A stretch of 64,000 bases of DNA, taken from the NCBI GenBank assembly GCA_015231885.1, contig JADGAT010000001.1:27436-91435 (forward strand), given 5' to 3'. Under the pieces are notes generated by a model. The model saw nothing but the letters and a program-made list of their open reading frames with translations, did no database searches and was not told the origin of the DNA. Positions 1,571 through 59,886 of this stretch are shown here, in pieces; the first letter of the stretch is position 1, and every line of letters starts with the position of its first letter. The DNA comes from SAR324 cluster bacterium (GTDB lineage: Bacteria > SAR324 > NAC60-12). The position numbers and the translations under genes are program-made.

Positions 1571-2431
1571 TTGGTTATGGAAAATATTTTTTCAAATGTA
1601 GGTTGGCAGGATATTATTGATATTTCTTTGTTAACCTTCATTTTTTATCGACTGCTTGTTTTTTTTAAGGGAACAAGAACAATACCGATATTGGCAGGAT
1701 TTACTTTGTTGCTTGCCCTGTATCTACTCTCGCAGATTTTGCAGTTAGAGGCCATTGGGTTGTTGCTGGACAATCTAGCGAATTCGTTAGTATTAGTGTT
1801 GGTCATTCTTTTTCAAGCAGAAATTCGCAATGCCTTGGCACAGTTTGGTCTGATTACTTTCTTGACAGGTAGTGGCCGTTTTAAAAAAGATGTACTGGAT
1901 GAAGCAATACAGGGATCCTTTTTAATGGCTCGTGAACGCATTGGTGCCCTCATTGTATTTGAACGAGAAGTGGGTTTACGTAATTTTATTGAAAAAGGAA
2001 CAGCAATAGATGCTGTGTTGACTAAAGAGGTATTGATCAGTATCTTTCGTCCCACCTCTCCCCTCCACGATGGGGCTGCCATTGTTGACCGCAAAGGGCG
2101 TCTTGCAGCAGCCAGATGTTTGTTACCCATTACAACGAGCACCAAAATCAGTCCTATTTTGGGGACTCGTCACCGTGCAGCCATTGGTCTTACTGAAGAA
2201 ACCGATGCCATTGTACTGATCGTTTCGGAGGAACGCAGCGAAATCAGTCTCAGTCACAAAGGCGAACTGATCCGAGGTTCTTCGCAGCAGGATATCAAAA
2301 AAGTTCTATTTGAATTGATGGATGTGAAAGCACAGGAACCACCAGTGACCTTAGATACTCCACAAACGGATGCGGTGGAGACCGAAGCCGATATCGAAGA
2401 AGATGAAAAATCAGTGGCCGTGACTGTATGA
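1571..2431 (+). CDS. cdaA: diadenylate cyclase CdaA/DacA (c-di-AMP synthase)
   Basis: N-terminal hydrophobic helices are followed by a DisA_N-like domain with DGA and RHRAA-type motifs. The gene sits immediately upstream of a YbbR-like gene. Confidence 0.8.
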   Translation: MVMENIFSNVGWQDIIDISLLTFIFYRLLVFFKGTRTIPILAGFTLLLALYLLSQILQLEAIGLLLDNLANSLVLVLVILFQAEIRNALAQFGLITFLTGSGRFKKDVLDEAIQGSFLMARERIGALIVFEREVGLRNFIEKGTAIDAVLTKEVLISIFRPTSPLHDGAAIVDRKGRLAAARCLLPITTSTKISPILGTRHRAAIGLTEETDAIVLIVSEERSEISLSHKGELIRGSSQQDIKKVLFELMDVKAQEPPVTLDTPQTDAVETEADIEEDEKSVAVTV

Positions 2432-2453: not shown

Positions 2454-3446
2454 ATGATGCTTGTGCGAAAGATAAAGAAAATTTTACCATTCACACTTAT
2501 CTCTTTTTTTCTGGCAATTTTTGTTTGGTATTTAGCCAAGCAAGGAGCACAAACAGTAGGAATGAGTTTTTTTGTTCCAATCGTGTTTAAGAACTTGCCG
2601 CCAAATATGAGAATCACTTCGGATGTTCCCGCAGGTGTTAATGTTTCTGGAAGAATAACCCGACGATACAACAATAATTTCAATCCATCCAGTCTTCAAG
2701 CAGTAGTTGATTTAAAAGAGGCGAGTGCCGGCACATTTCAATATACGTTAACCAAAGAAAATATTGCAGCACCAGAAGACGTCTCCATCACTCAAATCAA
2801 TCCTCTTCAGATAGACTTGTTCATTGAAGAAATTATAGAAAAAAGCTTGATCGTCCGCCCACGGTACCATGGACAAATCAAAAAAGAACACATTCTTCAA
2901 AAAATTGAATTATCCCCAAATATTGTTACAATCCAGGGACCAAAGACCAAACTAGAAACCGTCACATCGATTTTTACTAAAGAAATTAATTTACAGGATT
3001 TGGACCGTACTACAAACATGATCGTACAACTGGACATGCCTGATCGCAATATCCGTTTGGTCAACAATCAAGAAGTGTTTGTTGCTCATGTGGTGATTAT
3101 TGGTTTTCCTATCAGAAAACGATTTGATGATATCAGCATTCATTTGATGAATCAAACCTATGTGGCACTGATCAATCCTAAAAAATTCAATCTATATCTA
3201 GAGGGACCTGAAGAGTTACTGAATAATTTGGATTCATCACAACTCTATGGCATTATTGACATGTCACAGTATACTCCTGGCAGCCATCGGATTCATCCAC
3301 AACCGATCTTACCCAAAGGTGTTTCTTTACTCCAGCAATGGCCAAAAGTCGCCTTATGGGTCAAACCGCAAAAATTATCTGAAGAGGAAAGCTCCGGCCC
3401 TCAATTGCCTCCTCAACAACCGTCCTCTAATTCAATAGGAAATTGA
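2454..3446 (+). CDS. cdaR: YbbR-like CdaA regulatory protein CdaR
   Basis: N-terminal TM segment plus repeated YbbR-like beta-rich region. Its position after cdaA matches the conserved cdaA-cdaR operon. Confidence 0.65.
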
Positions 3447-3450
3447 AACA

Positions 3451-4170
3451 ATGATTGCTCTACATGTGAATGTTGACCATATTGCAACCATTCGTCAAGC
3501 GCGTCAAATCAGAGAACCGGATCCTGTAACAGGAGCCCTACTGGCCGAATTAGCAGGTGCCGATGGTATCACAGTCCATCTTCGTGAAGATCGCCGGCAT
3601 ATACAGCAGCGTGATGTACAAGTGATAAGAGAGACTGTGCAGACTTACTTAAATTTGGAAATGGCTGCTACAGAAGAAATGTTTGCTGTTGCACTCTCAA
3701 TCAAACCGGACATTGTGACTCTGGTACCCGAAAAACGTGAGGAAATCACCACAGAAGGAGGATTGGATCTTACAAGAAATACTTCTAATTTACACCAGGG
3801 CATTGAAAAACTCAAAAATGCGGGCATTCGTGTTAGCCTGTTCATTGATCCAGCACCAGAGCAGATTGAAAAAAGTAAGGCCGTAGCTGCAGATGATGTG
3901 GAACTGCATACAGGAGCCTATGCCAATTCTACTGATTCACTCACAAAAGAAAGCGAATTAGCACGCTTAAAAAGTGCGGCTCTGTTAGCACATGATCTCC
4001 GTTTACAAGTCAATGCTGGACATGGACTGAATTATCAAAATGTCCAGCCTGTTTGTCATTTACCCCATTTAAAAGAACTGAATATTGGCCACAGCATCAT
4101 CAGCCGCTCCATTTTTGTTGGAATCACAGAAGCGGTTAAAGAGATGCGAACCCTAATTCAAACCGCATAA
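3451..4170 (+). CDS. pdxJ: pyridoxine 5'-phosphate synthase
   Basis: Begins with [12 protein letters not shown], the characteristic PdxJ N-terminus. About 239 aa, with a TIM-barrel-like composition. Confidence 0.85.
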
Positions 4171-4177
4171 TACTACT

Positions 4178-5656
4178 ATGCCAAAAGATATGATTATTAA
4201 CCACTCGCCTCATGAAGCGCGGGTTGCTGTGATGGAAAATGGTATTGTTTCTGAACTATATTATGAACGCCTGAAAGAAAGAGGAATTGTTGGTAATATT
4301 TACAAAGGAAAAGTTTTAAAAGTATTACCTGGAATGGAAGCCGCTTTTGTCGATATTGGCGTAGAGCGTGCGGCTTTTTTATATATTGATGATGTCCTGC
4401 CAGAAAATGCTATTTTTGATGATGAAGGGGCAAGGGTTTCCGGCAAAAAAGATGAGAAACCCACCATTGAAAAGCTGCTGCAAGAGGAACAGGAAATTTT
4501 AGTTCAGGTCTCTAAAGGCCCCATTGGGACCAAAGGAGCAAGAATCACCAGCCATATTTCTATCCCAGGACGTAATCTGGTTTATATGCCAACCGTAACG
4601 ACACTGGGGGTTTCTCGCCAGATCACCAGTATTGACGAACGCCATCGTTTGAAAGATATTGTCAATCGCCTTCGGCCTGAAAAATCTGGATTTATTATTC
4701 GTACGGTCGCCGAAGGGCGCTCAGAAGACGACCTGCGTTCAGATTTGAATTATTTAGTCTCTATTTGGGATGAAATTATAAAAGATTACAAACAAACGGA
4801 AGCTCCTGCCTTGCTGCATCGGGATCTTGACATTGTTTTTCGATCAATCCGCGATGTTTTGTCTCCAGAGGTCCGAAGACTCATCATTGATGATAAAGCA
4901 CAATACAAGGCAATCAAATATTTCCTCAATACCTACCTTCCTCGCTACCGCTCTGTACTAGAGTTTTTTACCAAAGATACTCCCATTTTTGATCATTATG
5001 GTATTGAAGCCGAAATTGAGCGTGCATTGGACCAAAAAGTATGGTTGAAATCTGGAGGATATTTGGTGATCGATCAAACGGAAGCATTGATCTCCATAGA
5101 CGTCAATACAGGACGTTTTGTTGGCAACGAAAGTCATGAAAAGACCATTCTTAAAACAAATTTAGAAGCCGTGGAAGAAATCGTCTACCAGCTGCAACTT
5201 CGGAACATCGGAGGTATCATTATTATTGATTTTATTGACATGGGTGTCGCCGAGCATCGGCAGAAAGTCTATCATGCTCTCAAGGAACATTTAAAACACG
5301 ATAAAACACGTAGTAAAATTTTGCAGATCAGTGAAATGGGATTGGTTGAAATGACTCGTAAGCGAGATCGTGAAAATCTGACTCGCTACCTGTGTAATCC
5401 TTGCCCTTATTGTGAAGGCAAAGGTCGAACCAAGTCTGTATCCACCGTCAGTTACGAAATTTTTAGAGAATTATACCGCAACCGTTTGAAAAATCGAAAT
5501 GGTTCTTTTGTCGTCTATGTACATCCGGATGTTTACGAATTCCTCATGGAAGAAAATTCAACCGTAGAACAAGTTGAGCAAGATGTAGGGCAGAAAGTGG
5601 CTTTCAAAATTTCCAATTCTTTGCATCATGAGCAATTTGAACTATACGAATACTGA
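4178..5656 (+). CDS. rng: ribonuclease G (RNase E/G family)
   Basis: S1 domain near the N-terminus (GNIYKGKVLKVLPGMEAAFVDIG) followed by an RNase E/G catalytic core. 492 aa. Confidence 0.85.
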   Translation: MPKDMIINHSPHEARVAVMENGIVSELYYERLKERGIVGNIYKGKVLKVLPGMEAAFVDIGVERAAFLYIDDVLPENAIFDDEGARVSGKKDEKPTIEKLLQEEQEILVQVSKGPIGTKGARITSHISIPGRNLVYMPTVTTLGVSRQITSIDERHRLKDIVNRLRPEKSGFIIRTVAEGRSEDDLRSDLNYLVSIWDEIIKDYKQTEAPALLHRDLDIVFRSIRDVLSPEVRRLIIDDKAQYKAIKYFLNTYLPRYRSVLEFFTKDTPIFDHYGIEAEIERALDQKVWLKSGGYLVIDQTEALISIDVNTGRFVGNESHEKTILKTNLEAVEEIVYQLQLRNIGGIIIIDFIDMGVAEHRQKVYHALKEHLKHDKTRSKILQISEMGLVEMTRKRDRENLTRYLCNPCPYCEGKGRTKSVSTVSYEIFRELYRNRLKNRNGSFVVYVHPDVYEFLMEENSTVEQVEQDVGQKVAFKISNSLHHEQFELYEY

Positions 5657-5680: not shown

Positions 5681-6637
5681 ATGCAGGAACCCTATTGCTA
5701 TACTGTTTCTGATGCGGAGTCAAAAAAAAGGATTGATGCTCTATTGAGTTCATATCCAAAAGTAAGCTCTCGAACAATGGCCCAGCGCTTATTGAAGATA
5801 GGATTAGCAAGAGTCAATGGACAATTGGTTGCGCCAGCATATAAAGTGCGTGCTGGTGATGAAATTCGTTTTTCTCTGCCGGCGCCAGAACCTTTAGCGG
5901 TTGCTTCAGAAGCAGGGAATTTAGACATATTGTTTGAAGACCATTCATTGATTGTTGTCAACAAGCCCAGTGGACTGGTTGTTCACCCGGCTCCTGGCCA
6001 TGCTTCTGGTACTCTGGTCAATTTACTGCTCCATCATTGCCAGGATCTCTCTGGTATTGGAGGAATTTTACGTCCAGGCATTGTCCATCGGTTAGATAAA
6101 GGCACCTCTGGTGTTTTGGTTGTCGCTAAAACCGATGCTGCCCACCGTGGCCTATCAGAACAATTCCAACAGCATTCTATTCAGCGTACATATCATGCTT
6201 TGATTTGGGGGAATCCACTACAAAATAAAGGAACCATCAATGCTCCGTTAGCTCGTAATCCCCATCATCGCAAGAAAATGGCAATCGTTGCAAATGGTAA
6301 GTCTGCAACAACACACTGGAAAGTAATTGTGCGATTTCGGCATTTTACTTTATTGGAATGCCGCTTAGAAACAGGACGGACTCACCAAATTCGAGTGCAC
6401 TTGAGTTCTCAATCAATTCCAGTTGTTGGAGACCCACAATACGGGCAGTCACACCTCCGTCGAATTCGGGTTCAACCCTCATTGTCTGCAATCCTCTCTC
6501 AATTCAATCATCAAGCACTGCATGCTCAAACATTGGGGTTTATCCATCCTATTACCCAAACCCCCCTTGAGTTTACAGCACCGGTTCCTGCTGATTTTCA
6601 AAAGATTTTGGACGAGTTGGCACAATGGGATATCTAA
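5681..6637 (+). CDS. rluD: 23S rRNA pseudouridine synthase, RluA family (RluD-like)
   Basis: N-terminal S4-like domain followed by the catalytic HRLDKGTSGVLVVAK motif of the RluA family. Confidence 0.8.
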   Translation: MQEPYCYTVSDAESKKRIDALLSSYPKVSSRTMAQRLLKIGLARVNGQLVAPAYKVRAGDEIRFSLPAPEPLAVASEAGNLDILFEDHSLIVVNKPSGLVVHPAPGHASGTLVNLLLHHCQDLSGIGGILRPGIVHRLDKGTSGVLVVAKTDAAHRGLSEQFQQHSIQRTYHALIWGNPLQNKGTINAPLARNPHHRKKMAIVANGKSATTHWKVIVRFRHFTLLECRLETGRTHQIRVHLSSQSIPVVGDPQYGQSHLRRIRVQPSLSAILSQFNHQALHAQTLGFIHPITQTPLEFTAPVPADFQKILDELAQWDI

Positions 6638-6789: not shown

Positions 6790-8997
6790 ATGGCAAAAAT
6801 AGAAAAAATTCAAATAGCACAAGGAGTACATTGGATCACTATACCAGAGGCCAAACTCTATATATTGTGCGGATGCCCTGCTGATAGCGTTAAACTTCTG
6901 ATGAAAAGAGGATTGATTGTCTCCAAAGAAGAAAATGGGGTGGTATTTGAAACAGGCCCAAACGCAATTTTGCTGTCAGATGTCTTGGTTCAAAATGGAA
7001 ATTTTTCTAATCTTGCCGAATTTCCAGTATTACAAATGTTTTACAGGCAAGGCATGATGCTGCCGAATCATCCAAATAATACAGGAATCAAACCTTTGTT
7101 AATTGGTATGGAAGATCAGTTGAAATCACAGTTGCACTATATTTATCGTGGAAATTATGGACTGATCTCAGCAGATGAAATCATGCAAACCGGAATTTCC
7201 AGCAAGCAAGCTAAAGACATGATGCGTTTGAAGTTAAAATTTGCTTTTGGAAAAATTCATCCTACAGAAGACTTGCTGGATACATTGTTGGTCTCCGAGG
7301 ATACCGTAGAAATTCGCAATGGCGTGCATATTCGGCACATCGGTTGGAATCTTTATGAATTCATATACCAGGGAGAAAAAGTTACGGTTGATTTGAATTT
7401 ACCCCCGCATGTGTATTATGAGGCACCATACCGGTTGGAATTCCATAAAGTTCGGAGAGAATATTTTGCAGTTATTCATTCAGGAGAGGGCGATGGATGG
7501 GACACTCATCGACCCTGTATGGCGAGTGTTTTAACATTTCAAGGAAAAATCTATTTGATTGATGCCGGCCCCAATGTACTATACAGTCTGAAAGCCCTGG
7601 GAATCGGAGTTAACGAAATTGAAGGTATTTTCCACACACATGGTCACGATGATCACTTCGCCGGCTTACCCACACTGATGCGTACAGATCGTCGCCTCAA
7701 GTACTACAGCACTCCGCTGGTACGCCACTCGGTCGCCAAAAAACTCTCAGCACTGGTGTCCATCAAAGAAAGGGATTTTGCTGATTATTTTGACGTCTGT
7801 GATTTGGAGCTTTCTAAATGGAATGATATTGACGGTTTAGAAGTCTACCCTACTTTTTCTCCCCATCCCGTAGAAACCAATAATTTTATCTTTCGTACTC
7901 TGTGGAAAGGAGGGTATCGCTCTTATGGACATTATGCTGACATTTCTTCTTTCGACGTGTTAAAAGGAATGATTACCAAAAATGATTCGGAACCCGGAAT
8001 TTCTGAATCTTTTTTTACAGAAGTTAAAAAAAATTATCTGGCTACTGTGGATTTAAAGAAAATTGATATTGGGGGAGGCATGATTCACGGAGTAGCTGAA
8101 GACTTTCGTAGTGACTCATCGGCTAAAATAGTTTTATCCCACACTGCTTTTACCCTCAACGCTCAGCAAAAAGAAATCGGTTCGGAAGCATCTTTTGGCA
8201 TGCCCGATGTGTTGATCGAATCAAATCAGCAGTATGTCATGCAGTATGCCTTCAATTATCTGCATTCTTACTTTCCATCCGTACCCCGACATCAGCTTCA
8301 TATCTTACTCAATAACCACTTAGTATCATTCAATGCGGGAAGCATCTTACTCAAAAGAGGCGAAAGGATTAACGATATCTATCTCATATTGGGCGGTAAT
8401 GTTGAAATGATTCAAGCAGACGCCGGGATAGAAAGCTTACTGTCAGCAGGCTCTTTAGTCTCAGAAAGCTGTGAATTTACTGGATCACCTTCAACATGCA
8501 CCTATCGGGCGGCCAGTTTTGTGCAGGCACTGCAACTACCAAGCTCTTTATATTTCGAATTTGCTAAACAAAATAAAGTCTATACAGAACTGGCAAGACT
8601 TCAAAAAAACAGAGCTTTTTTGCAATCATCCTGGCTGTTTGGTGATGAAATATCAGATCCTGTGCAAAATCGAATTTTACAGACAATAAAATCAGAGAAA
8701 TACTCAAAAGGGCACGTATTCCCGAAAGAGTGCTACTCCAATTTTTATTTGATCAAAAAAGGTAAGTTAGAGAGTTATATTGATGATGATTTGTTTGAAA
8801 CTTTGACTAAAACAAATTTTTTTGGAGAAGAAAATATTTTATTCAAGATTCCATGTTTATTTACGGTCAAGGTTGCCAGTTCTGCAGAAGTATACCAGAT
8901 ACCTGATGAGGCGTTGCGCAATATTCCAATCGCCCGCTGGAAAATGCTCGAAACATTTCAAAAGAGAATGAGAAAATTAGGAAAACATTTTACTTGA
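6790..8997 (+). CDS. multidomain protein: unknown N-terminal domain + MBL-fold metallo-hydrolase + C-terminal cyclic-nucleotide-binding (CAP-family) domain(s)
   Basis: MBL HxHxDH motif within HTHGHDDHF. The C-terminal region carries cNMP-binding-like signatures (FFGEENILF...TVKVASSAEVYQIP, and a weaker one around CEFTGSPSTCTYRAAS). 735 aa. Confidence 0.6.
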   Translation: MAKIEKIQIAQGVHWITIPEAKLYILCGCPADSVKLLMKRGLIVSKEENGVVFETGPNAILLSDVLVQNGNFSNLAEFPVLQMFYRQGMMLPNHPNNTGIKPLLIGMEDQLKSQLHYIYRGNYGLISADEIMQTGISSKQAKDMMRLKLKFAFGKIHPTEDLLDTLLVSEDTVEIRNGVHIRHIGWNLYEFIYQGEKVTVDLNLPPHVYYEAPYRLEFHKVRREYFAVIHSGEGDGWDTHRPCMASVLTFQGKIYLIDAGPNVLYSLKALGIGVNEIEGIFHTHGHDDHFAGLPTLMRTDRRLKYYSTPLVRHSVAKKLSALVSIKERDFADYFDVCDLELSKWNDIDGLEVYPTFSPHPVETNNFIFRTLWKGGYRSYGHYADISSFDVLKGMITKNDSEPGISESFFTEVKKNYLATVDLKKIDIGGGMIHGVAEDFRSDSSAKIVLSHTAFTLNAQQKEIGSEASFGMPDVLIESNQQYVMQYAFNYLHSYFPSVPRHQLHILLNNHLVSFNAGSILLKRGERINDIYLILGGNVEMIQADAGIESLLSAGSLVSESCEFTGSPSTCTYRAASFVQALQLPSSLYFEFAKQNKVYTELARLQKNRAFLQSSWLFGDEISDPVQNRILQTIKSEKYSKGHVFPKECYSNFYLIKKGKLESYIDDDLFETLTKTNFFGEENILFKIPCLFTVKVASSAEVYQIPDEALRNIPIARWKMLETFQKRMRKLGKHFT

Positions 8998-13514: not shown

Positions 13515-13589
13515 TGGGGTGTAGCCAAGTGGTAAGGCAGCGGGTTTTGATCCCGTCATCCGCAGGTTCGATCCCTGCCACCCCAGCCA
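13515..13589 (+). tRNA. tRNA-Gln (anticodon UUG)
   Basis: Cloverleaf folded by hand. Acceptor UGGGGUG/CACCCCA with a U1-A72 pair typical of bacterial tRNA-Gln. D-arm GCC...GGC. Anticodon stem GCGGG/CCCGU with loop UUUUGAU, giving anticodon UUG. T-arm GCAGG-UUCGAUC-CCUGC, discriminator G and an encoded CCA. Confidence 0.9.
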
Positions 13590-19942: not shown

Positions 19943-22855
19943 ATGAATATGGGTGTGCTTCATATGACAGCAAAATTCATGCTACGTGCATTCTGTTTGA
20001 TGACCATCTTATGTAGCAGTGCTGGGGTCATGTCAGTTCAAGCAGCAGATGAATATATCATTCAGCAAATTTTAAAATTAGGAAACAAAAAAGCGTATGA
20101 TGCAGTTTTTAGTCCAGACAACCGATTCATAATTACCTTATCCGGAACTCACAAGCTGGAAGTTTGGAATAGCCGAACAGGTAATCCTGTGAAAGCATTT
20201 CCCACCGGAAAACATAAAGCCATGTCGTTGATTTCCCATCCACAGGATTCGGTTTTAATCACTGGGGGTAATGATCATACCATTCATGTATGGGATGTCA
20301 ACCGTGGGAGTACAACTAATGCCATGCGTGGGCATGTGGGAGCAATCACCACATTGGCCATTAATTATGACGGAACCCTGCTGGTTTCGGGAAGTGAGGA
20401 TGGTGCTATTTTGATATGGGATCTGAAACACTTTGCTTTACAAAGTACGATCCAAAAGGCGCATCTCGGCATCGTCCACAGTGTGGACATTCATCCCAAC
20501 GGAAAATTGCTGGCGAGCGGGGGAAAAGATCGCAAAATCAGGATTTGGAACCTGCAAACCGGGAAGATGATCGTTGAGTTCAAGGAGCATGCAGGAGAAG
20601 TAACAAAGGTGGCATTCCACTCGAATGGAAGAATATTAGCTTCGGCCTCTCAAGATAAAACCATCAAATTGTGGAATTGGCAAGAAAAATTTGCAGAACA
20701 TACCCTGAGCAACCATGGCAATGTGGTAACCGGATTGAGCTTTCACGCAAATGGGACGGTTCTGATTTCCAGCAGTGAGGATGAAAGGATCATTCTCTGG
20801 GATATTGAAAAAGGGAAAATGCTTTCCGAATTGAAATCGGTGGATGGCTCCGTCGAAAGTGTTCATTTTGACAGTAGCGGGAAACGAGTTATTGCAGCTA
20901 CAGCAAAAGGATTAGCAGAAGTTTGGGAGTTGGGGCCCTCTTCGTTTCTGGCCTCATTGCAGGGACACCAACGCTTCATTACAGCCCTGGATTTCACAAA
21001 AAATGGCAAGTATTTGCTCTCTGCAGCATTGGATAAAACGATCAAAGTCTGGAGTATGGACCAGCAGCAATTAGCCGTCACGTTCCCATCCGGAAACCAC
21101 CGTGTCCAGGACCTTCGTATGAGTCAGGACAGCCGAAACTTTGCAACCGCAGGTGCCGATTCGCTAGTTGGTATATGGGATACACAATCGGGACAGAGAC
21201 TGGCTTCGTTAGAAAAACATAAAGGAAAAGTCAATAGCATTGATTATCATCCAACACAACCATTTTTAGTGTCTGCTGGATCTGATCGGCAATGGTTTCT
21301 TTGGGATTTGGAGACGAGCCAGGCAACTCAATCCAGCATGACCCATCAAGATCAAATAACCGTAGTGCGGTTCGCTCCTGATGGATCACACTTTGCTACT
21401 GGCAGTGCGGATAAATCTATCATGGTATGGAGTTATCCCCAAGGGCAGCTCGTTCACACATTGACCGGTCATCGTAAAGCAATCAGTGATCTTGCTATTA
21501 GCCCCATTTCACCGATCCTGGCTTCTGCATCTGCTGATGAGACCATTACACTATGGGATATTTCTTCAGAAGGCGGGAAAAAAATACATGATTTGAAAGG
21601 GCATGGCTTTATTGTAACGGGAGTTGCTTTTTCTAAAGACGGCAAAGTTTTGATTTCTGTGTCACGTGATAAAACCGTACGCCTCTGGGATGTGGAAACC
21701 GGAAAGCCGATTAAAATTCTTAGCGGAGAACGCCATCCTATCAGCAAAATGGCCGTACGGCCGGATGGTAAACTGATTGCAGTGGGTACTCTAGGAAATG
21801 AAATCACTTTATTAGGATATCCGCTGGACATCATTGAAGTGAGCAAAAAAAAACAGGGATTGATGACAAAAGGAAACCATGCTTCAAACCAAAATCAGAA
21901 AACTGCGCAAAGGGTTGATATTTCTGATGCTGAAGCTTATATTGTGGATCAATCTGACCTGGAGGAAACTGTCGAAGAGTATGTCGAAGAGCAGATTTAT
22001 CAGGTAACGCAAAAAGAAGACTTTGCCAAGATCCAGGAAACCCGTCAACACAGCCTGAATATTGTGTTGAATAAAGGAGAAGTCTGTGAAAACGCGAACG
22101 ACTTGGAAGAAAAAGCCATTGAGGTATTGCAGATGGCTCCAGGAGACTTATCGGCATACCATGCATTTTTAAAAGTTGCTATCACACGCCAAGATATCAA
22201 TATGATATTTTTGCTGGCAAAAATCAGTTCATACGCATCCTTTGTTCCAAGTCGTTACAACTATGCACTTCCCATTGATGTAGAAAATAACTTCCGCTCC
22301 TGGATAGAAGATATTTTTGAGCAATCTCATATACGACAACAGGATAGTTTCCTGCTTTCACTCAAAAATTGCCTGGGAAAAACAATACAAATGAGGATCC
22401 CAGACATGCTGTATTATTTGGATATTCCAGAAGAATTTATACAAAAAATAATCACCATCCCACGATTTATCGACTTGCGCGATTTTAAAGGTTTAGGAAC
22501 AGAAGAATTTAAAAACCGTTTGTTTGGACAAATTTTGAAAAAACTGGGAAGTTCCACACCATATCAGGATAATCGAAGTCCCTTGGGAAATAATTTTATT
22601 TCCCCACCCGTGCCTTCAGGGCAGCTTGTTGTGAACCTGACACAAACACAACTCTGGGGCAATCCAACGCAGGTTCGCTTCCAGCTCAGAGAAAGAAGCA
22701 ATCCGTGGCAAACGTATTATACGGCAATGGATAAACAGAAAATTCTGTTTCTCCCAACAGGTCAATATTATCTTAAAATTGATAAAAGCATTCGACGTGC
22801 TTTTGTGCTAAAAGCAAATCAGAGCACCCAAATAAAAGGACCTGATTTACAATAG
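19943..22855 (+). CDS. secreted WD40-repeat protein (about 14 blades) with a C-terminal domain of unknown function
   Basis: Signal peptide ending VQA/ADEY. Fourteen WD-type blades, each with a W[DNES] dipeptide at its C-terminal end (LEVWNS, IHVWDV, IRIWNL, IKLWNW, ... VRLWDV). An acidic linker is followed by a ~300 aa C-terminal region with no recognisable motif. An AAGGAGTG RBS precedes the ATG. Confidence 0.8.
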   Translation: MNMGVLHMTAKFMLRAFCLMTILCSSAGVMSVQAADEYIIQQILKLGNKKAYDAVFSPDNRFIITLSGTHKLEVWNSRTGNPVKAFPTGKHKAMSLISHPQDSVLITGGNDHTIHVWDVNRGSTTNAMRGHVGAITTLAINYDGTLLVSGSEDGAILIWDLKHFALQSTIQKAHLGIVHSVDIHPNGKLLASGGKDRKIRIWNLQTGKMIVEFKEHAGEVTKVAFHSNGRILASASQDKTIKLWNWQEKFAEHTLSNHGNVVTGLSFHANGTVLISSSEDERIILWDIEKGKMLSELKSVDGSVESVHFDSSGKRVIAATAKGLAEVWELGPSSFLASLQGHQRFITALDFTKNGKYLLSAALDKTIKVWSMDQQQLAVTFPSGNHRVQDLRMSQDSRNFATAGADSLVGIWDTQSGQRLASLEKHKGKVNSIDYHPTQPFLVSAGSDRQWFLWDLETSQATQSSMTHQDQITVVRFAPDGSHFATGSADKSIMVWSYPQGQLVHTLTGHRKAISDLAISPISPILASASADETITLWDISSEGGKKIHDLKGHGFIVTGVAFSKDGKVLISVSRDKTVRLWDVETGKPIKILSGERHPISKMAVRPDGKLIAVGTLGNEITLLGYPLDIIEVSKKKQGLMTKGNHASNQNQKTAQRVDISDAEAYIVDQSDLEETVEEYVEEQIYQVTQKEDFAKIQETRQHSLNIVLNKGEVCENANDLEEKAIEVLQMAPGDLSAYHAFLKVAITRQDINMIFLLAKISSYASFVPSRYNYALPIDVENNFRSWIEDIFEQSHIRQQDSFLLSLKNCLGKTIQMRIPDMLYYLDIPEEFIQKIITIPRFIDLRDFKGLGTEEFKNRLFGQILKKLGSSTPYQDNRSPLGNNFISPPVPSGQLVVNLTQTQLWGNPTQVRFQLRERSNPWQTYYTAMDKQKILFLPTGQYYLKIDKSIRRAFVLKANQSTQIKGPDLQ

Positions 22856-32015: not shown

Positions 32016-33584
32016 TTGAACCGTGACATGAATAACCCTTCGAAACAAAAATATTACCAGCAAATCGCTAATAAAAAACGCGATTTTCCGGCATTAATCA
32101 TCATCAGTGAAAACAGTTGTGTCGTGTATACCCATTGCGGAACAGGACCCAAATATGAGGAAGTCTTCAAAGAATTTGAATCGTTTCATGAGCAAAACCT
32201 TGGTGGATCTCTCCTGGCATCGTTGTCTGAAAATGATCGTACTGCTTTGCAGAACTGGATAGATATTCTCTATGACGAAACCTATGTCGAATTGATGATG
32301 CCGGAAGATATTGTCAAACTGTGCCCCTCATTTTCTCTCACCTGGACAGATGGACAAAACTATGAGGTGCGTTTTGAAGCAATCAAAACCGAAGTCATTT
32401 ATGAGTATGTTCTGGTATGGCTGGAGCCCCATGGACACACTCAGCAGCAGCAACTGGCATCCGATATTATTGAATTGATGGGCGAGTTGAGAGCAGCCCC
32501 ACGAGAGGTGATCAATAATCTAAGAGAATACCTGCCAGAAGTGAATACGAACATCAATTTCGCTAGCTATGCCGATATTGAAGACTCAGAAGAGTTATTG
32601 CATCAACTTTCCCGGCATTTGCACGCAGCAAAGGGGACCACTTTTTTTCTTGGATTTTCCACATTGGGGAATGCATGTCATGGTGCTGAATCGAAGCTTG
32701 GAGAGTTGAGAGGCACATGGCAGCTGTCCGATGGACTGCAGCCGATTCGTGACGTACTCAGCCAATTACAATTGTTATTGAACCTGGCAGAAGGAATCAG
32801 TACAAAAGTATACAACTCTAGCGCAGAATCTGAGGAAGAAGAAATGTCTGTCTCTCGCTCTGATTATTATGAGATATTGGGCAATGCTGCTTTGATTTAT
32901 GAGGAATGGAAACATTTATTTGAAAAAGAAGAAAAACTCGTTCTTTTGATCGATCAACTATATCATGGGTTGATACATCTAGATGCTGTGCCTATTACAA
33001 CCCTTTTTGAAAGATTAAATAGCTCAACAGCTCAACTTTCAAAAGAGCTCGACAAATCCGTGGAATTTTCCGTTGGTTCGAACTCTCCCACGGTACACCT
33101 CCCTCACCGGGTATTAGATGGTTTATGGAATGCCCTCTATCAGGTGTTAAAAAATGCGATCGATCATGGAATTGAAGATCCTCCCACCAGAGCCAAGTGC
33201 AACAAATCTCCTGTTGGACAAATTATATTCACTGTGAACGTAATAGACGAACTGCTCGTCTTACAATTACATGACGATGGTAGGGGAATCAATCCGCAAG
33301 ATATCATTCGAACTGCTGTAGAACGAGGGGTCATTTCCAAGGAAAAAGCAAAGCAACTGGAAGGGTTCGATTCTACAGATGAAATTTACCAATTGCTATT
33401 CTCTCCAGGATTTTCCACACAGAAAGTAGTTACGACCATCTCAGGCAGGGGGGTTGGCACCGATGTCATTCGCGAAGAAATTGAAGAATACTCGGGACAA
33501 ATTTCTATTGTTTCTGAAGTCGGACAGTGGACGGAATTTATTTTGAGAGTCCCCATTGCTCCTAACCACATTGTCGTAGAATGA
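32016..33584 (+). CDS. CheA-like HPt-containing histidine kinase lacking a CheW-like domain
   Basis: HPt-like motif LHAAKGTTFFLGFSTLGNACHGAESKLGEL (compare CheA P1 HSIKGgagtFGf). The C-terminal HATPase_c has G-box motifs (DDGRGINPQDI, GRGVGTDVI). The protein ends right after the ATPase domain. Confidence 0.55.
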   Translation: MNRDMNNPSKQKYYQQIANKKRDFPALIIISENSCVVYTHCGTGPKYEEVFKEFESFHEQNLGGSLLASLSENDRTALQNWIDILYDETYVELMMPEDIVKLCPSFSLTWTDGQNYEVRFEAIKTEVIYEYVLVWLEPHGHTQQQQLASDIIELMGELRAAPREVINNLREYLPEVNTNINFASYADIEDSEELLHQLSRHLHAAKGTTFFLGFSTLGNACHGAESKLGELRGTWQLSDGLQPIRDVLSQLQLLLNLAEGISTKVYNSSAESEEEEMSVSRSDYYEILGNAALIYEEWKHLFEKEEKLVLLIDQLYHGLIHLDAVPITTLFERLNSSTAQLSKELDKSVEFSVGSNSPTVHLPHRVLDGLWNALYQVLKNAIDHGIEDPPTRAKCNKSPVGQIIFTVNVIDELLVLQLHDDGRGINPQDIIRTAVERGVISKEKAKQLEGFDSTDEIYQLLFSPGFSTQKVVTTISGRGVGTDVIREEIEEYSGQISIVSEVGQWTEFILRVPIAPNHIVVE

Positions 33585-51482: not shown

Positions 51483-52955
51483 TTAAAAGATATTTCCCTC
51501 GAATTTTCCGTATATGAGGTCTTGGAGCTCATATACGGTTCGCAGGGAATCTCTTAAAAATCGTCCTTGAAGCGGATTCAATTCGCGAAAACTGATCATA
51601 TTATCCGTCCTGGTACTGCCTTCTTTTCTTGCAAAATCCTGCCGAATTCTCAACAATAAAATAAAATCATACGCTTCTCTGACTGCTCCGACTACCTCAG
51701 GAGACAGCAGACCCGCTTTTTCAATCACATCCAAACGTTCCATAGAATGAGTAACCGGTGATCCGCAGGTCAAGGCAAGAACCCGTATGGCCCTCACTAA
51801 CGGAGCCAGTGCTTCCCTTTTGATATCAACAGGTGGGGGAAACATTTCTATCAAGCGGCGGAGTCTCCATTTCCAGTTCTTGACTGGAGGGCGCCCTGCC
51901 TTAATCATGTTTTCTGTTAAAAATCGGAGAAAACTTTTATTATTCTCTATTGCCTGTAGCAATCCTTCCCATAATTCATCAACAAACCTTGTTTGTCCAT
52001 ACAACGCTCGAAAATCAAAATAAGTAGAGGCCTTGAGCAAAGAGTCAGGTTCCGGATTGACAACAATCGAGTGAAATATCTGATGCCAGCGGTCTACTGA
52101 CAGACAAAGTTCCGGATTGCTGGCCATGATGTTACCTTCGCAGCGGGGAAAACCGCATGTTTCCAGGCCCTCAACCGCTTTTTCAGCAAATTGCAGAAAC
52201 CACTGCTGTACTTCGACAAACTGACTGTCTGGAACATTAGCAAATACAATTCCATTATCCTGGTCGGTACTGGAAGTTTGCTCTTTTCTACCTTCACTGC
52301 CCATTGCCATCCAGCAAAATTCAACAGGAGGCTCCCCTTTTCCATCTTCCTTCATCTCTCTGAGTGAATTTGCTATGATTGCTTCTGTAATGCGGTCGTT
52401 GACTTCTGTCACAATCATGGTGAGAGACCGGGCATCTCCTTCTTCTTCAAATATGTTTTCAATCAGAACATTGGACTCTGTTTTCAATTCAGCAGCATCA
52501 GCAATCGTACTTGCTTCTTCAATAGCACGAAACAAATAGGCGGGATGCCGTGCTTGATAGCGCACCCAGTCATGCTCCGAGATCATACCCACCATTATCC
52601 CTTCGCCTATCACCAGAAGGTGGGTGATTTTATGACGAAGCATCAGCAGCAAGCCCTCAAAAATGGGCCGATCGTACTCAATAGAGAGGATTTGGGGACT
52701 CATTATTTCTTCAATAGGTAGATTGGTTTCCTTGCTGACTGCCAACACGCGGCGCACCAAATCCGTCTTGGTTACAATTCCGATGGGTTGTCCCTTTTCG
52801 ACAACCACTAACGATCCAATGGACTTTTTGGTCATTTTATTGGCCGCTTCTTGAATCGAGGTACCTTTACCGATTGTGTGGATCGGCCCTTTGACCAATT
52901 CATAGACTATATTGGAAAAAGGAGAAAAAGCTTTGGTGTGTACAGGAGTATTCAT
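51483..52955 (-). CDS. CBS-pair + DUF294 (putative nucleotidyltransferase) signal-transduction protein
   Basis: Tandem CBS domains at the N-terminus, followed by a DUF294-like nucleotidyltransferase region and a C-terminal substrate-binding-like region. Its stop lies 1 nt from the sdhB stop. Confidence 0.65.
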   Translation of the reverse strand: MNTPVHTKAFSPFSNIVYELVKGPIHTIGKGTSIQEAANKMTKKSIGSLVVVEKGQPIGIVTKTDLVRRVLAVSKETNLPIEEIMSPQILSIEYDRPIFEGLLLMLRHKITHLLVIGEGIMVGMISEHDWVRYQARHPAYLFRAIEEASTIADAAELKTESNVLIENIFEEEGDARSLTMIVTEVNDRITEAIIANSLREMKEDGKGEPPVEFCWMAMGSEGRKEQTSSTDQDNGIVFANVPDSQFVEVQQWFLQFAEKAVEGLETCGFPRCEGNIMASNPELCLSVDRWHQIFHSIVVNPEPDSLLKASTYFDFRALYGQTRFVDELWEGLLQAIENNKSFLRFLTENMIKAGRPPVKNWKWRLRRLIEMFPPPVDIKREALAPLVRAIRVLALTCGSPVTHSMERLDVIEKAGLLSPEVVGAVREAYDFILLLRIRQDFARKEGSTRTDNMISFRELNPLQGRFLRDSLRTVYELQDLIYGKFEGNIF

Positions 52956-57080: not shown

Positions 57081-59336
57081 ATGAATGACAACGATAAACC
57101 AAAAGGGGGGTTAATAGAAGAACTGAACGAATTACGACAGAAGGTTGCCCTTTTAGAAAAGACTCTTTCTCAAAAGGAAATGCATGCATCTGAAGAAGTA
57201 ACGTCAAGGCTCTATAAGACAAACGAATCCGTTAATCTGCGAAAGCTGGCCGAACAACATTTACCAGCACCTCCACCCATTGATCTGCTGGAATTAACCC
57301 GGGAAGATATCGAGCACTTGTTTCATGAGCTGCAGGTCCATCAGATTGAGTTAGAGCTCCAAAACGATGAGCTTCTCAAAAACCAGCAAGAATTGGAACA
57401 ATCCCGAGATCTCCTTTACGATCTCTATGACCTTGCCCCAGTAGGATATCTGACGGTTAATAAAAGCGGCATCATCCGGAAAGCCAACCTCACCCTGGCA
57501 GCTATGCTCAATGCCGATAAACAAAGTTTGGTTGGCAAGCCGTTATCGCATTTTGTACATCCAGAAGACCAGAATCTGTATTTTTTGAAGGGCAGGGATC
57601 TGTTTAGAAGCCCCAGTTTGAAACAAACTGAGATCAGGATGCTAAACAGTGACGGTTCCTTCTTCCATGCGATGCTGACAGGAAGGAAAACAGAAAATAC
57701 GAAGGAGGCGCGACTGGTTGTTACCGACATCACCCCCCTCAAAAGAACCGAAGAGGCACTGAAGTATGCAGAAAAAGAAAACAAACGTGCTGCGGATATT
57801 GTGGCCAATATAGGCGTGGGGCTTCACATATACCAGTTGGAAGATATTGACGATGATTCTTCTTTGAGGATGATCACTGTCAATGAAGCAGCAGCCGTGA
57901 TGACAGGCATTCCTGCTGGAAAGACGATCGGTAGAACCCTGGATGAGAATTTTCCTGAACTGCGCAGGATGGAAGTGCCCCAAAAGTATGCACAGGTGGC
58001 TCGTTCCGGCATATCAATAGAACTTGGAGAAATCCATTACAGTAATGAACAGATCGGCTTTGCGACATTTTTTGTAAAAGTCTTTCCGCTTCCTGAAAAC
58101 TGCGTGGGAGTTTCGTTTGAGAATATTACCAAACGCAAACTGCTGGAGTCCCAGCTCCATCATTCGCAGAGATTGGACTCCCTGGGAACCCTGGCAGGAG
58201 GGATTGCTCATGAGTTCAATAATATTTTGTCGATTATTCGAGGCTACGGCGACATTCTGCTCCAAAAACTTCCTGAAGACAGTACAGAGAAATCCTATAT
58301 GGAGAACGTCCATACAGCCAGCAGAAGAGCCGTTGATCTGACAAAACAAATCTTAACCTTCAGTCGGATGGAACATCAAAAAAACGATGTACATTACATA
58401 CAGCCTTTGATTAAAGAAGTCCTCAAAATGATGAGAGCCACCTTACCTGTCACCATTGAGATCCAGGAAGATATCGATTCCAATTGCGCCCCCATCCTGG
58501 CAGACCCATCACAAATACATCAAGTACTTGTCAACCTCTTTACCAATGCGTTCCATGCCATGGAAGAGACTGGAGGTCTTCTGACAGTCACTTTAAAGCA
58601 AGAAACCCATAATGGGAATCAGCCGCTGCTATCCGAATTAAAAGGTGATTCGTTTCTGAAGCTGACAGTCAGCGATACAGGATATGGCATTCCAATCGAA
58701 GATCAGGAAAAAATATTTGATCCCTTTTTTACCACAAAAAAAGTAGGTGAAGGAACCGGACTTGGTTTATCCATGGTTCACAGCATTATCAAACAACATG
58801 GAGGCATCATTACGGTAGAAAGTGAGATGAAGACGGAGCAGTGCTCTGGGGGAACCTCTTTCCATATTTATCTTCCGACCGCTTCCAGAAGTTCCGAAAG
58901 CCAGCAGGAAGAAAAAAAGACACTTCCCAGAGGAAGAGGACACATCTTAGTTGTTGATGACGACACGTTGATCACCGAAGTGTACCAAGATATATTGACG
59001 GAAACTGGATATGACGTCACTGCTTTTGACAACGAGTTGGATGCATTGAAAAAATTTCAGCAAAATCCAGATCAATTTGATTTGATTTTTACAGACTTCA
59101 CCATGCCTCACTTAACCGGAGATCAGTTGAGCCAACAAATATTAAAGATCCGACCCGACATTCCCATTATTCTGACAACAGGTTACAGCAATATGATCTC
59201 TGAAAAAAAAGCAAAAGCTCTTGGAATTCAAGAATTTTTGATGAAGCCTGTTGAAAAAATTCAGCTGCTTGAAACCATTCAGAAGCTGCTTAAAAAGAAT
59301 CCAGAAAATAACCATTCAAATACGATTTTTTCTTGA
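57081..59336 (+). CDS. PAS-domain hybrid sensor histidine kinase (coiled coil, PAS, HisKA, HATPase_c, receiver)
   Basis: H-box IAHEFNNIL, N/G boxes (NLFTNAFHAM, DTGYGIP, GTGLGLS) and a C-terminal receiver (ILVVDDD...DLIFTDFTMP). Confidence 0.8.
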   Translation: MNDNDKPKGGLIEELNELRQKVALLEKTLSQKEMHASEEVTSRLYKTNESVNLRKLAEQHLPAPPPIDLLELTREDIEHLFHELQVHQIELELQNDELLKNQQELEQSRDLLYDLYDLAPVGYLTVNKSGIIRKANLTLAAMLNADKQSLVGKPLSHFVHPEDQNLYFLKGRDLFRSPSLKQTEIRMLNSDGSFFHAMLTGRKTENTKEARLVVTDITPLKRTEEALKYAEKENKRAADIVANIGVGLHIYQLEDIDDDSSLRMITVNEAAAVMTGIPAGKTIGRTLDENFPELRRMEVPQKYAQVARSGISIELGEIHYSNEQIGFATFFVKVFPLPENCVGVSFENITKRKLLESQLHHSQRLDSLGTLAGGIAHEFNNILSIIRGYGDILLQKLPEDSTEKSYMENVHTASRRAVDLTKQILTFSRMEHQKNDVHYIQPLIKEVLKMMRATLPVTIEIQEDIDSNCAPILADPSQIHQVLVNLFTNAFHAMEETGGLLTVTLKQETHNGNQPLLSELKGDSFLKLTVSDTGYGIPIEDQEKIFDPFFTTKKVGEGTGLGLSMVHSIIKQHGGIITVESEMKTEQCSGGTSFHIYLPTASRSSESQQEEKKTLPRGRGHILVVDDDTLITEVYQDILTETGYDVTAFDNELDALKKFQQNPDQFDLIFTDFTMPHLTGDQLSQQILKIRPDIPIILTTGYSNMISEKKAKALGIQEFLMKPVEKIQLLETIQKLLKKNPENNHSNTIFS

Positions 59337-59562: not shown

Positions 59563-59886
59563 ATGCCAATCAATTATGAAAAAGAAAAAAATGCTCTTAT
59601 TTTCAAACTCGCAGGAAACATTGCTTGGGAAACCGCACACAGATACAGCGAAGAAATGATGAATTTGGCGGAACAAGAAGATTATGAGTCGATACTGGTC
59701 GACTTTGAAAACGTCGATTTTGTTGACTCAACAGGAGTTGGATTATTAGTCGAGTTATATAAAATCGCACAGACCAGGAAGAAAAAGCTCTCCGTCTGCA
59801 GGATGAAAATGGCCTATAAGCTGGCAATGATTGGATTAGGCAGTATTATTGTCAATTATGACAGCAAAGAAGAGGCTTTGTGTTAA
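59563..59886 (+). CDS. STAS-domain protein (anti-sigma factor antagonist-like)
   Basis: 107 aa with the SpoIIAA-like DSTGVG motif. Overlaps the GTG start of the downstream kinase by 7 nt. Confidence 0.7.
   Translation: MPINYEKEKNALIFKLAGNIAWETAHRYSEEMMNLAEQEDYESILVDFENVDFVDSTGVGLLVELYKIAQTRKKKLSVCRMKMAYKLAMIGLGSIIVNYDSKEEALC

Follow-up and report, generated by a model that had tools for sequence, protein, structure and literature searches.

A metallo-beta-lactamase-fold protein of a SAR324 bacterium with a degenerate second copy of the fold and two cyclic-nucleotide-binding-like domains: a candidate sensor-regulated phosphodiesterase

Introduction

Which reaction is catalysed, and under the control of which signal, by a bacterial protein that joins a metallo-beta-lactamase (MBL) fold to cyclic-nucleotide-binding (CNB) domains? 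This question is raised by an open reading frame (ORF) in a 64,000-nucleotide stretch of DNA from a SAR324 cluster bacterium (GenBank assembly GCA_015231885.1, contig JADGAT010000001.1, positions 27,436 to 91,435 of the forward strand), called the window below. The ORF list and its translation give an uninterrupted ATG-to-stop frame at 6790..8997 of the plus strand, which encodes 735 amino acids; the opposite strand is full of stops and closed. An NCBI entry from a SAR324 cluster metagenome-assembled genome (MAG), named "cyclic nucleotide-binding domain-containing protein", has the same sequence (100% identity).

The reading favoured here, with about even confidence, is that of a cytoplasmic, sensor-regulated signalling phosphodiesterase (PDE) of previously undescribed architecture, whose substrate is predicted to be a phosphodiester. 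A regulated phosphodiesterase had already been suggested by a first-pass annotation of this DNA and is still the best reading, GbpA and GbpB of Dictyostelium giving a characterised precedent for an MBL PDE with two CNB domains. What had to be revised is the nature of the N-terminal domain, the presumed ligand of the CNB domains and the link to a neighbouring gene for cyclic di-AMP (c-di-AMP) synthesis.

Domain organization and catalytic centre

The domain boundaries were drawn on an AlphaFold2 model of the whole protein (pLDDT 88.8, pTM 0.88) and on profile matches:

6790..8997, plus strand: complete ORF, 735 amino acids and stop, with a dead MBL domain, a live MBL domain and two CNB-like domains (ORF list, AlphaFold2 model)
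6790..7455, plus strand: N-terminal degenerate (pseudo) MBL-fold domain, residues 1-222, without the metal-binding His motif
7465..8229, plus strand: MBL domain, residues 226-480, catalytically intact as judged by its ligands
8272..8589, plus strand: CNB-like domain A (CNB-A), residues ~495-600, with the best Pfam cNMP_binding stretch (512-594), aligning to the CNB-C position of the Plasmodium protein kinase PfPKG
8614..8979, plus strand: CNB-like domain B (CNB-B), residues ~609-730, with the second cNMP_binding stretch and alignments to CNB domains of PKG and of PKA regulatory subunits (PKA-R)

The general description of a 735-residue MBL-fold hydrolase fused to CNB domains thus stands, with intact binuclear-metal ligands and two domains of CNB fold. 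Both Pfam families by which it was to be checked are significantly matched: Lactamase_B (PF00753) with E=3e-9 and 37.5 bits for a cut-off of 22.7, and cNMP_binding, described below. Lactamase_B_2 (PF12706) is also above its cut-off (31.5 bits versus 27).

All five classical MBL metal-ligand motifs (D; HxHxDH; H; D/C; H) are present in residues 226-480. The HxHxDH signature had been recognized at first pass within HTHGHDDHF, which is located at residues 282-290. Conservation, here and below, was counted in an alignment of 193 full-length relatives:

7561..7563, plus strand: D258, the motif I Asp (193/193 relatives)
7633..7659, plus strand: HTHGHDDHF, residues 282-290, with motif II H284-x-H286-x-D288-H289 (each ligand in 192-193/193)
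7858..7878, plus strand: SPHPVET with H359 of motif III (192/193), S357-P-H-P being invariant
7930..7941, plus strand: H381-Y-A-D384, with the motif IV bridging Asp D384 (192/193) and an invariant H381
8056..8091, plus strand: family-specific block K423-K-x-D426-x-G-G-G-x-x-H433-G434, made of invariant alignment columns
8134..8145, plus strand: L-S-H451-T, with the motif V His H451 (192/193)

With these ligands kept in 192-193 of the 193 relatives, the site is a complete binuclear centre and is under strong selection. The KKxDxGGGxxHG block is possibly part of the substrate pocket; the pattern KK[IL]D[VI]GGG, derived from it, was used for scanning.

The live MBL domain is closest, by structure as well as by sequence profile, to the class II PDEs of the Apyc1/YhfI type, without being a member of that group. 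Apyc1 is the best MBL match of the family profile among the sequences of the PDB (E 4.5e-6), it comes first by structure score in the comparison with the whole model, and by both measures it ranks above RNase Z. The structural neighbourhood also includes RNase Z, RNase J, PhnP, arylsulfatase and PqqB; all these neighbours cleave phosphodiesters, except arylsulfatase and PqqB. The PDEase_II model, which describes class II enzymes of the yeast PDE1/CpdP type, gave no match. An RNase J relationship, named at first pass as the kind of unrelated identity to be looked for, is ruled out: NF047419 scores 18 bits for a cut-off of 820, and no beta-CASP family appears in the Pfam listing. Sequence comparison thus places the protein on a branch of its own within the part of the MBL superfamily that holds ElaC and the class II PDEs.

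A second, degenerate MBL copy at the N-terminus

The N-terminal domain had been described as matching nothing recognizable. This remains true of sequence families, since residues 1-240 give no Pfam match even at E<=10, but not of the fold, which is that of a degenerate second MBL domain: a Foldseek search with the N-terminal domain finds Apyc1 at E 2.4e-5 (prob 1.0). A short relic stands at the topological position of HxHxDH:

6868..6885, plus strand: C27-G-C29-P-A-D32, after strand 23-27 and before helix 33-39 (model secondary structure)

This equivalence between CGCPAD and HxHxDH was drawn from the order of strands and helices and not from superposition. The relic is nearly invariant in close relatives. 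A role of its CxC pair as a metal or redox site was considered and set aside, since P0224 and P0230, two divergent relatives, have lost the second Cys.

The domain is conserved as strongly as the catalytic one. Some 40 of its residues are invariant, among them E54, D64, E77, Y85, H94, Y117, R120 and Y123, and many of the 40 are polar, which fits an active role. A phmmer search with residues 1-240 gave 279 matches among 1.84 billion representatives (50% identity). The listed matches that run past the domain are mostly of ~450-480, ~720-750 or ~860-900 residues, and in 10 of 10 longer matches examined with Pfam, an MBL domain follows.

When the whole model is compared with the long-form RNase Z of yeast (Trz1), 367 residues are aligned, and 282 with human ELAC2, as compared to about 216 for single-domain MBL proteins. 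These alignments are longer than a single MBL domain, which means that both halves superpose at once. The model therefore suggests an intramolecular pseudo-dimer in which one MBL copy is dead and the other live. Catalysis by Apyc1 needs E74 and Y112 of the opposing protomer (PMC9117128); in the SAR324 protein, the single active site may likewise be completed by the dead copy.

A widespread family with exchangeable sensor domains

Thousands of relatives were found in a search of 5.8 billion proteins. The best 120 are 56-74% identical over 94-100% of the query length (at least 97% in all but one). Named members come from Desulfonema, Candidatus Magnetomorum, Kuenenia, Anaerolineae and Magnetococcales. 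In roughly two thirds of these 120 proteins, an extra C-terminal hemerythrin domain brings the length to ~870 residues. When one genome per GTDB species was scanned, at least 581 loci were found to encode a relative, with 53-63% identity across phyla. The lineages include SAR324, Desulfobacterota, anammox Planctomycetota, Campylobacterota, Spirochaetota, Magnetococcales, Nitrospinota, Mariprofundus, Alphaproteobacteria of the Magnetospirillum group and Betaproteobacteria, among others, and some genomes hold two or three paralogues. No relative is encoded in any of the 2.9 million viral contigs that were scanned. A relative with 55% identity is encoded on a 13.6-kb contig in the MAG of an Asgard archaeon (Promethearchaeota); its presence there could be due to contamination of the bin or to horizontal gene transfer into archaea.

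The dead-MBL/live-MBL core is found in several contexts, as annotated by Pfam in divergent matches to the N-terminal domain. REC precedes the core and two CNB domains in P0121, and CHASE2 does so in P0135; SBP_bac_3 (P0134) and GAF (P0142) precede the core and one CNB. The fusions are thus REC, GAF, CHASE2 or SBP_bac_3 on the N-terminal side, and CNB or hemerythrin on the C-terminal side. The core also occurs alone, with 437-483 residues (P0147, P0196, P0222, P0251), the 437-residue example, P0251, coming from the complete genome of Thiospirochaeta perfilievii. An enzymatic core that stays constant while its sensor domains are exchanged is the hallmark of a signalling output module.

These architectures bear on a first alternative, in which the protein would be a regulated RNA endonuclease, a bacterial analogue of long-form RNase Z processing tRNA or other RNA under sensory control. 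The dead/live tandem does superpose on Trz1 and ELAC2, RNase Z/ZipD and ELAC1 are among the top structural matches for both MBL halves, RNase Z is the best, though weak, NCBIfam match, and the gene follows rng (RNase G) and rluD in the window. However, the RNase Z models (TIGR02651, NF000801) cover residues 239-299 only (45 bits versus 293), no beta-CASP/RNase J feature is detected, Apyc1 is the closer relative by structure and by profile, and the rng/rluD neighbourhood is confined to SAR324. In addition, the core is fused to REC, GAF, CHASE2, hemerythrin and CNB sensors; fusions of this sort are typical of small-molecule second-messenger enzymes rather than of RNases. An RNA substrate under sensory control looks thus unlikely.

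CNB-like domains without the phosphate-binding arginine

The description of one clear and one weaker CNB signature corresponds to two stretches matched by Pfam cNMP_binding (E=1.9e-17, 63.5 bits versus a cut-off of 27.5). As aligned by HMMER to PfPKG, both phosphate-binding cassettes (PBCs) are degenerate:

8449..8514, plus strand: cassette of CNB-A (GSLVSESCEFTGSPSTCTYRAA), with S558 for Gly and S568 for Arg
8818..8874, plus strand: cassette of CNB-B (FFGEENILFKIPCLFTVKV), with C689/L690 for Arg-Ser/Thr

S568 stands opposite the R of the RSAT cassette of PfPKG. Arg is found at column 568 in 1 of the 193 relatives and at column 689 in 4; the usual residues in its place are Ser/Ala in CNB-A and Ser/Ala/Gly in CNB-B. 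A regular expression for the canonical cassette, which recognizes 4 of 4 control cassettes, gave a single match in 278 family proteins, in an extra third CNB domain of P0232, and none in the standard two.

P0232 is a divergent relative of 1167 residues. Its third CNB domain, with a fully canonical cassette (FGEVGILEHKPRSATVAA), follows two Arg-less CNB domains, and is itself followed by a further C-terminal region of ~300 residues without Pfam match. This third cassette shows that a canonical cassette is kept in the lineage where one is needed.

The importance of the arginine is documented in PKA. In RI-alpha, R209 and R333 neutralise the cyclic phosphate, and the kinetoplastid PKA-R that lacks this Arg ignores cyclic AMP (cAMP) and binds nucleosides, a cyclic-nucleotide response being restored when the Arg is put back (PMC10959531). 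The CNB tandem of the SAR324 protein finds its best alignment in the CNB-C and CNB-D domains of PfPKG, CNB-A corresponding to CNB-C. The CNB-C domain of PfPKG is a degenerate, non-binding one.

The protein could be read as a canonical PDE activated by cAMP or cyclic GMP (cGMP), its CNB domains binding the very cyclic nucleotide that the MBL domain hydrolyses, as in GbpA and GbpB. The domain order is the same, the Pfam cNMP_binding match is significant, the nearest MBL relative is a cyclic-nucleotide PDE, P0232 has added a fully canonical CNB, and the Gly-Glu pair of the cassette is mostly kept (G558 in 173/193, E559 in 118/193, G679 in 164/193, E680 in 124/193). Yet this Gly is itself replaced in the SAR324 protein by S558, the phosphate-binding Arg is replaced by Ser in CNB-A and by Cys in CNB-B and is nearly absent family-wide, and neither standard CNB is recognized by an expression that detects every control. 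The position of CNB-A opposite a non-binding domain of PfPKG and the unresponsiveness to cAMP of a kinetoplastid PKA-R devoid of the equivalent Arg (PMC10959531) argue in the same direction. Because neither CNB has the PBC Arg, canonical cAMP/cGMP sensing is doubtful and, as predicted from these residues, unlikely; so is the complete cAMP- or cGMP-activated enzyme. The "cNMP-sensing" of the first-pass annotation is not supported, and the database name "cyclic-nucleotide-binding" is probably misleading as to the ligand. More probably, the two domains serve for allosteric control or auto-inhibition and bind another ligand or no ligand at all.

Gene neighbourhood

The gene order in the window is ftsH, cdaA, ybbR/cdaR, pdxJ, rng, rluD, the gene under study, ftsY (convergent) and a UvrD/PcrA-type helicase gene:

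1571-2431, plus strand: cdaA, fifth gene upstream
2454-3446, plus strand: ybbR/cdaR
3451-4170, plus strand: pdxJ
4178-5656: rng (RNase G)
5681-6637: rluD, directly upstream

No Rfam family lies near the gene, and no notable promoter- or terminator-like site was seen on its flanks. Contrary to the earlier count of two genes, cdaA is the fifth gene upstream, with cdaR, pdxJ, rng and rluD in between. The order ftsH-cdaA-ybbR-rng-rluD-target-ftsY-uvrD is kept in a 70%-identical SAR324 relative (L004), and synteny with cdaA is also seen at an 88%-identical SAR324 relative (L007). It is absent in a 65%-identical relative, in Desulfonema and in an anammox MAG. This confinement to SAR324, together with the miscounted distance, reduces the c-di-AMP hint to an incidental lineage synteny among housekeeping genes. 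The pdxJ gene is absent from the otherwise syntenic L004 locus, a small insertion or deletion that is specific to a lineage within a conserved group of housekeeping genes.

Across the family, ORF calling and all-against-all clustering at 82 loci gave no neighbour family present in more than 5 of them. Pfam annotation of 131 flanking genes gave HATPase_c (10), REC (9), HisKA (7), PAS (6), GAF (4) and STAS (3), so that the immediate neighbours are only mildly enriched in two-component, PAS, GAF and STAS genes. The families that recur in these 131 genes include neither cyclases nor GGDEF. A defence or anti-defence role was also considered and rejected: PADLOC gave sub-threshold matches only, to the CNB parts of Pycsar effectors, and no relative was found in the 2.9 million viral contigs.

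This neighbourhood also speaks to another alternative, a hydrolase acting on something other than a nucleotide (a sulfate ester, a lactone or quorum signal, a ribose cyclic phosphate or a phosphonate intermediate), with the CNB domains as generic ligand sensors. The invariant KKxDxGGGxxHG block, which has no assigned counterpart in known PDEs, would be accommodated by such an activity. No metabolic operon context appears, however, in the 82 loci and 131 flanking genes, the exchange of sensor domains points to a role in signalling and not in catabolism, and Apyc1 is the best match of the whole model as well as of the MBL profile. We consider this alternative quite improbable. As for a c-di-AMP phosphodiesterase functionally coupled to the diadenylate cyclase CdaA, it is hardly credible: cdaA-cdaR lies upstream on the same strand, also in the 70%-identical SAR324 relative, but four unrelated housekeeping genes intervene, the linkage is lost in the 65%-identical relative and in the Desulfonema and anammox members, none of the neighbour families is shared by more than 5 of the 82 loci, and the family is present in Magnetospirillum-type Alphaproteobacteria and in Betaproteobacteria, which are not generally known to have diadenylate cyclases.

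A proposed sensor-regulated phosphodiesterase

The favoured reading, a sensor-regulated signalling phosphodiesterase, can be put as a sequence of proposed steps. An ancestral homodimeric enzyme would have given rise to the two MBL copies when it was duplicated and the duplicates fused. The dead copy would play the part of the "opposing protomer" and help to build the single active site, as in long-form RNase Z and Apyc1. The substrate of the live half would be a phosphodiester, and among these a cyclic nucleotide second messenger is the most likely. The CNB-like tandem would gate this activity in an allosteric or auto-inhibitory way, either by reading a non-canonical ligand or by relaying signals, which in the relatives would come from the appended hemerythrin, REC, GAF, CHASE2 or SBP sensors.

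Several results weigh against this reading. The models that define the known families are not reached: the Apyc1 family PF23023 scores 20.5-23.6 bits for a cut-off of 50, NF041851 (Apyc1-type PDE) 15.4 bits for 400, and RNase Z TIGR02651 45.2 bits for 292.95, with residues 239-299 alone aligned. The structural neighbourhood holds RNases, PhnP, arylsulfatase and PqqB alongside PDEs. The loss of the Arg from both PBCs weakens the argument that a CNB fusion implies cyclic-nucleotide metabolism, and the flanking genes supply no conserved partner, be it a nucleotide cyclase or another. Profile-profile comparison of the N-terminal and MBL domains gives an hhalign probability of 0.1%, with no trace of duplication in the sequence, so that duplication is supported by the fold only. 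The geometry of the pseudo-dimer and the role of the N-terminal domain come from the AlphaFold model and not from a solved structure, and the substrate is predicted by comparison.

A wider proposal is put forward tentatively, well short of even confidence. The dead/live MBL core may be a previously unrecognised bacterial signalling output module, a pseudo-dimeric PDE degrading a nucleotide second messenger, possibly a non-canonical one, under the control of oxygen or redox state (hemerythrin), phosphorylation (REC) and small ligands, with Arg-less CNB domains sensing for example a nucleoside or the reaction product. If true, this would be the first bacterial counterpart both of the ELAC2-type MBL duplication and of the re-purposed CNB domains of the kinetoplastid type.

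Other features of the window

The sole Rfam match within the 64-kb window is a single tRNA gene (13515-13586, plus strand, 65.8 bits). A 970-residue protein, large for a bacterium, is encoded at 19943-22855 (plus strand) and consists nearly entirely of WD40/beta-propeller repeats (at least 9 WD40, Pfam E 5e-106). At 51483-52955 (minus strand), a pair of CBS domains is joined to a DUF294 putative nucleotidyltransferase domain and DUF294_C. Elsewhere in bacteria, the DUF294 nucleotidyltransferase family often has an N-terminal cNMP-binding domain; in this protein CBS is the only sensor domain detected.

Signalling genes are frequent in the region. Two PAS-HisKA-HATPase-REC hybrid histidine kinases are encoded side by side at 57081-59336 and 59880-61913 (both plus strand), and a protein with Hpt and HATPase domains, possibly CheA-like, at 32016-33584 (plus strand). 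None of these histidine kinase and Hpt genes adjoins the gene studied here.

Significance

The family is large, with relatives in no fewer than 581 species genomes, and unusually well conserved, it extends over SAR324, sulfate reducers, anammox bacteria, Campylobacterota, spirochaetes and magnetotactic bacteria, and its members carry generic database names only. A literature search that covered few subscription-journal papers found no publication on this bacterial family, and no characterised bacterial enzyme combining MBL and CNB domains, with or without hemerythrin. Should the protein be a sensor-controlled second-messenger PDE, it would add a new catalytic output module beside the EAL, HD-GYP and class III PDEs, it would tie oxygen or redox sensing by hemerythrin to nucleotide signalling in gradient-dwelling organisms, and it would give a bacterial example of the passage from a homodimeric MBL enzyme to a fused pseudo-dimer. 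CNB domains without the Arg also offer a practicable way to ask what such folds sense when they do not sense cyclic nucleotides, and cultured hosts (Desulfonema, as D. ishimotonii with P0043; Paramagnetospirillum, as P. caucaseum; Telmatospirillum) open this question to experiment.

Comparison with known systems

Apyc1 and the YhfI of B. subtilis, class II PDEs that act on cyclic mononucleotides, share with the SAR324 protein the HxHxDH binuclear-metal site. They are dimers in which the partner protomer supplies catalytic residues, a likeness proposed here for the two halves of the protein. They differ in being single-domain homodimers of ~245 residues without sensors, whereas the SAR324 protein holds two fused copies, one of them inactivated, followed by CNB-like domains; the identity is ~19%.

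The long-form RNase Z enzymes, yeast Trz1 and human ELAC2, similarly have a degenerate N-terminal MBL half without the His motif and an active C-terminal half. These are, however, eukaryotic enzymes of tRNA 3'-processing without CNB or sensor domains, while the SAR324 protein has CNB-like domains, and the match to RNase Z models, over ~60 residues and far below cut-off, does not amount to membership at the sequence level.

As to the CNB domains, they are closest in kind to those of kinetoplastid PKA-R, which have been re-purposed, and to CNB-C of PfPKG, which is degenerate. Purine nucleosides are bound by the kinetoplastid domains, which carry a specific Ala-to-Glu change; at this position the present family has mostly Ser, Cys or Asn, with Glu in 19 of 193 relatives for CNB-A.

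The closest characterised enzymes in functional terms are likely to be GbpA (PDE5/PdeD, AAL06059) and GbpB (PDE6/PdeE, AAL06060) of Dictyostelium, known as "class IIb", to which the protein is architecturally analogous in its domain order. They were compared by description: both have an MBL domain and then two CNB domains, and they are the only characterised enzymes found with this logic of an MBL PDE and two CNBs. Binding of cyclic nucleotides to their downstream CNB domains activates hydrolysis (PMC11988041). Their motif HCHADHDS (PMC3188802) differs from the HTH[AG]HDDHF of the present family, and they are eukaryotic enzymes whose CNB domains are functional sensors, in contrast to the domains without the PBC Arg described here. 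The known kind is thus that of sensor-coupled class II MBL phosphodiesterases; what is new is this variant of it, and not a categorically new system.

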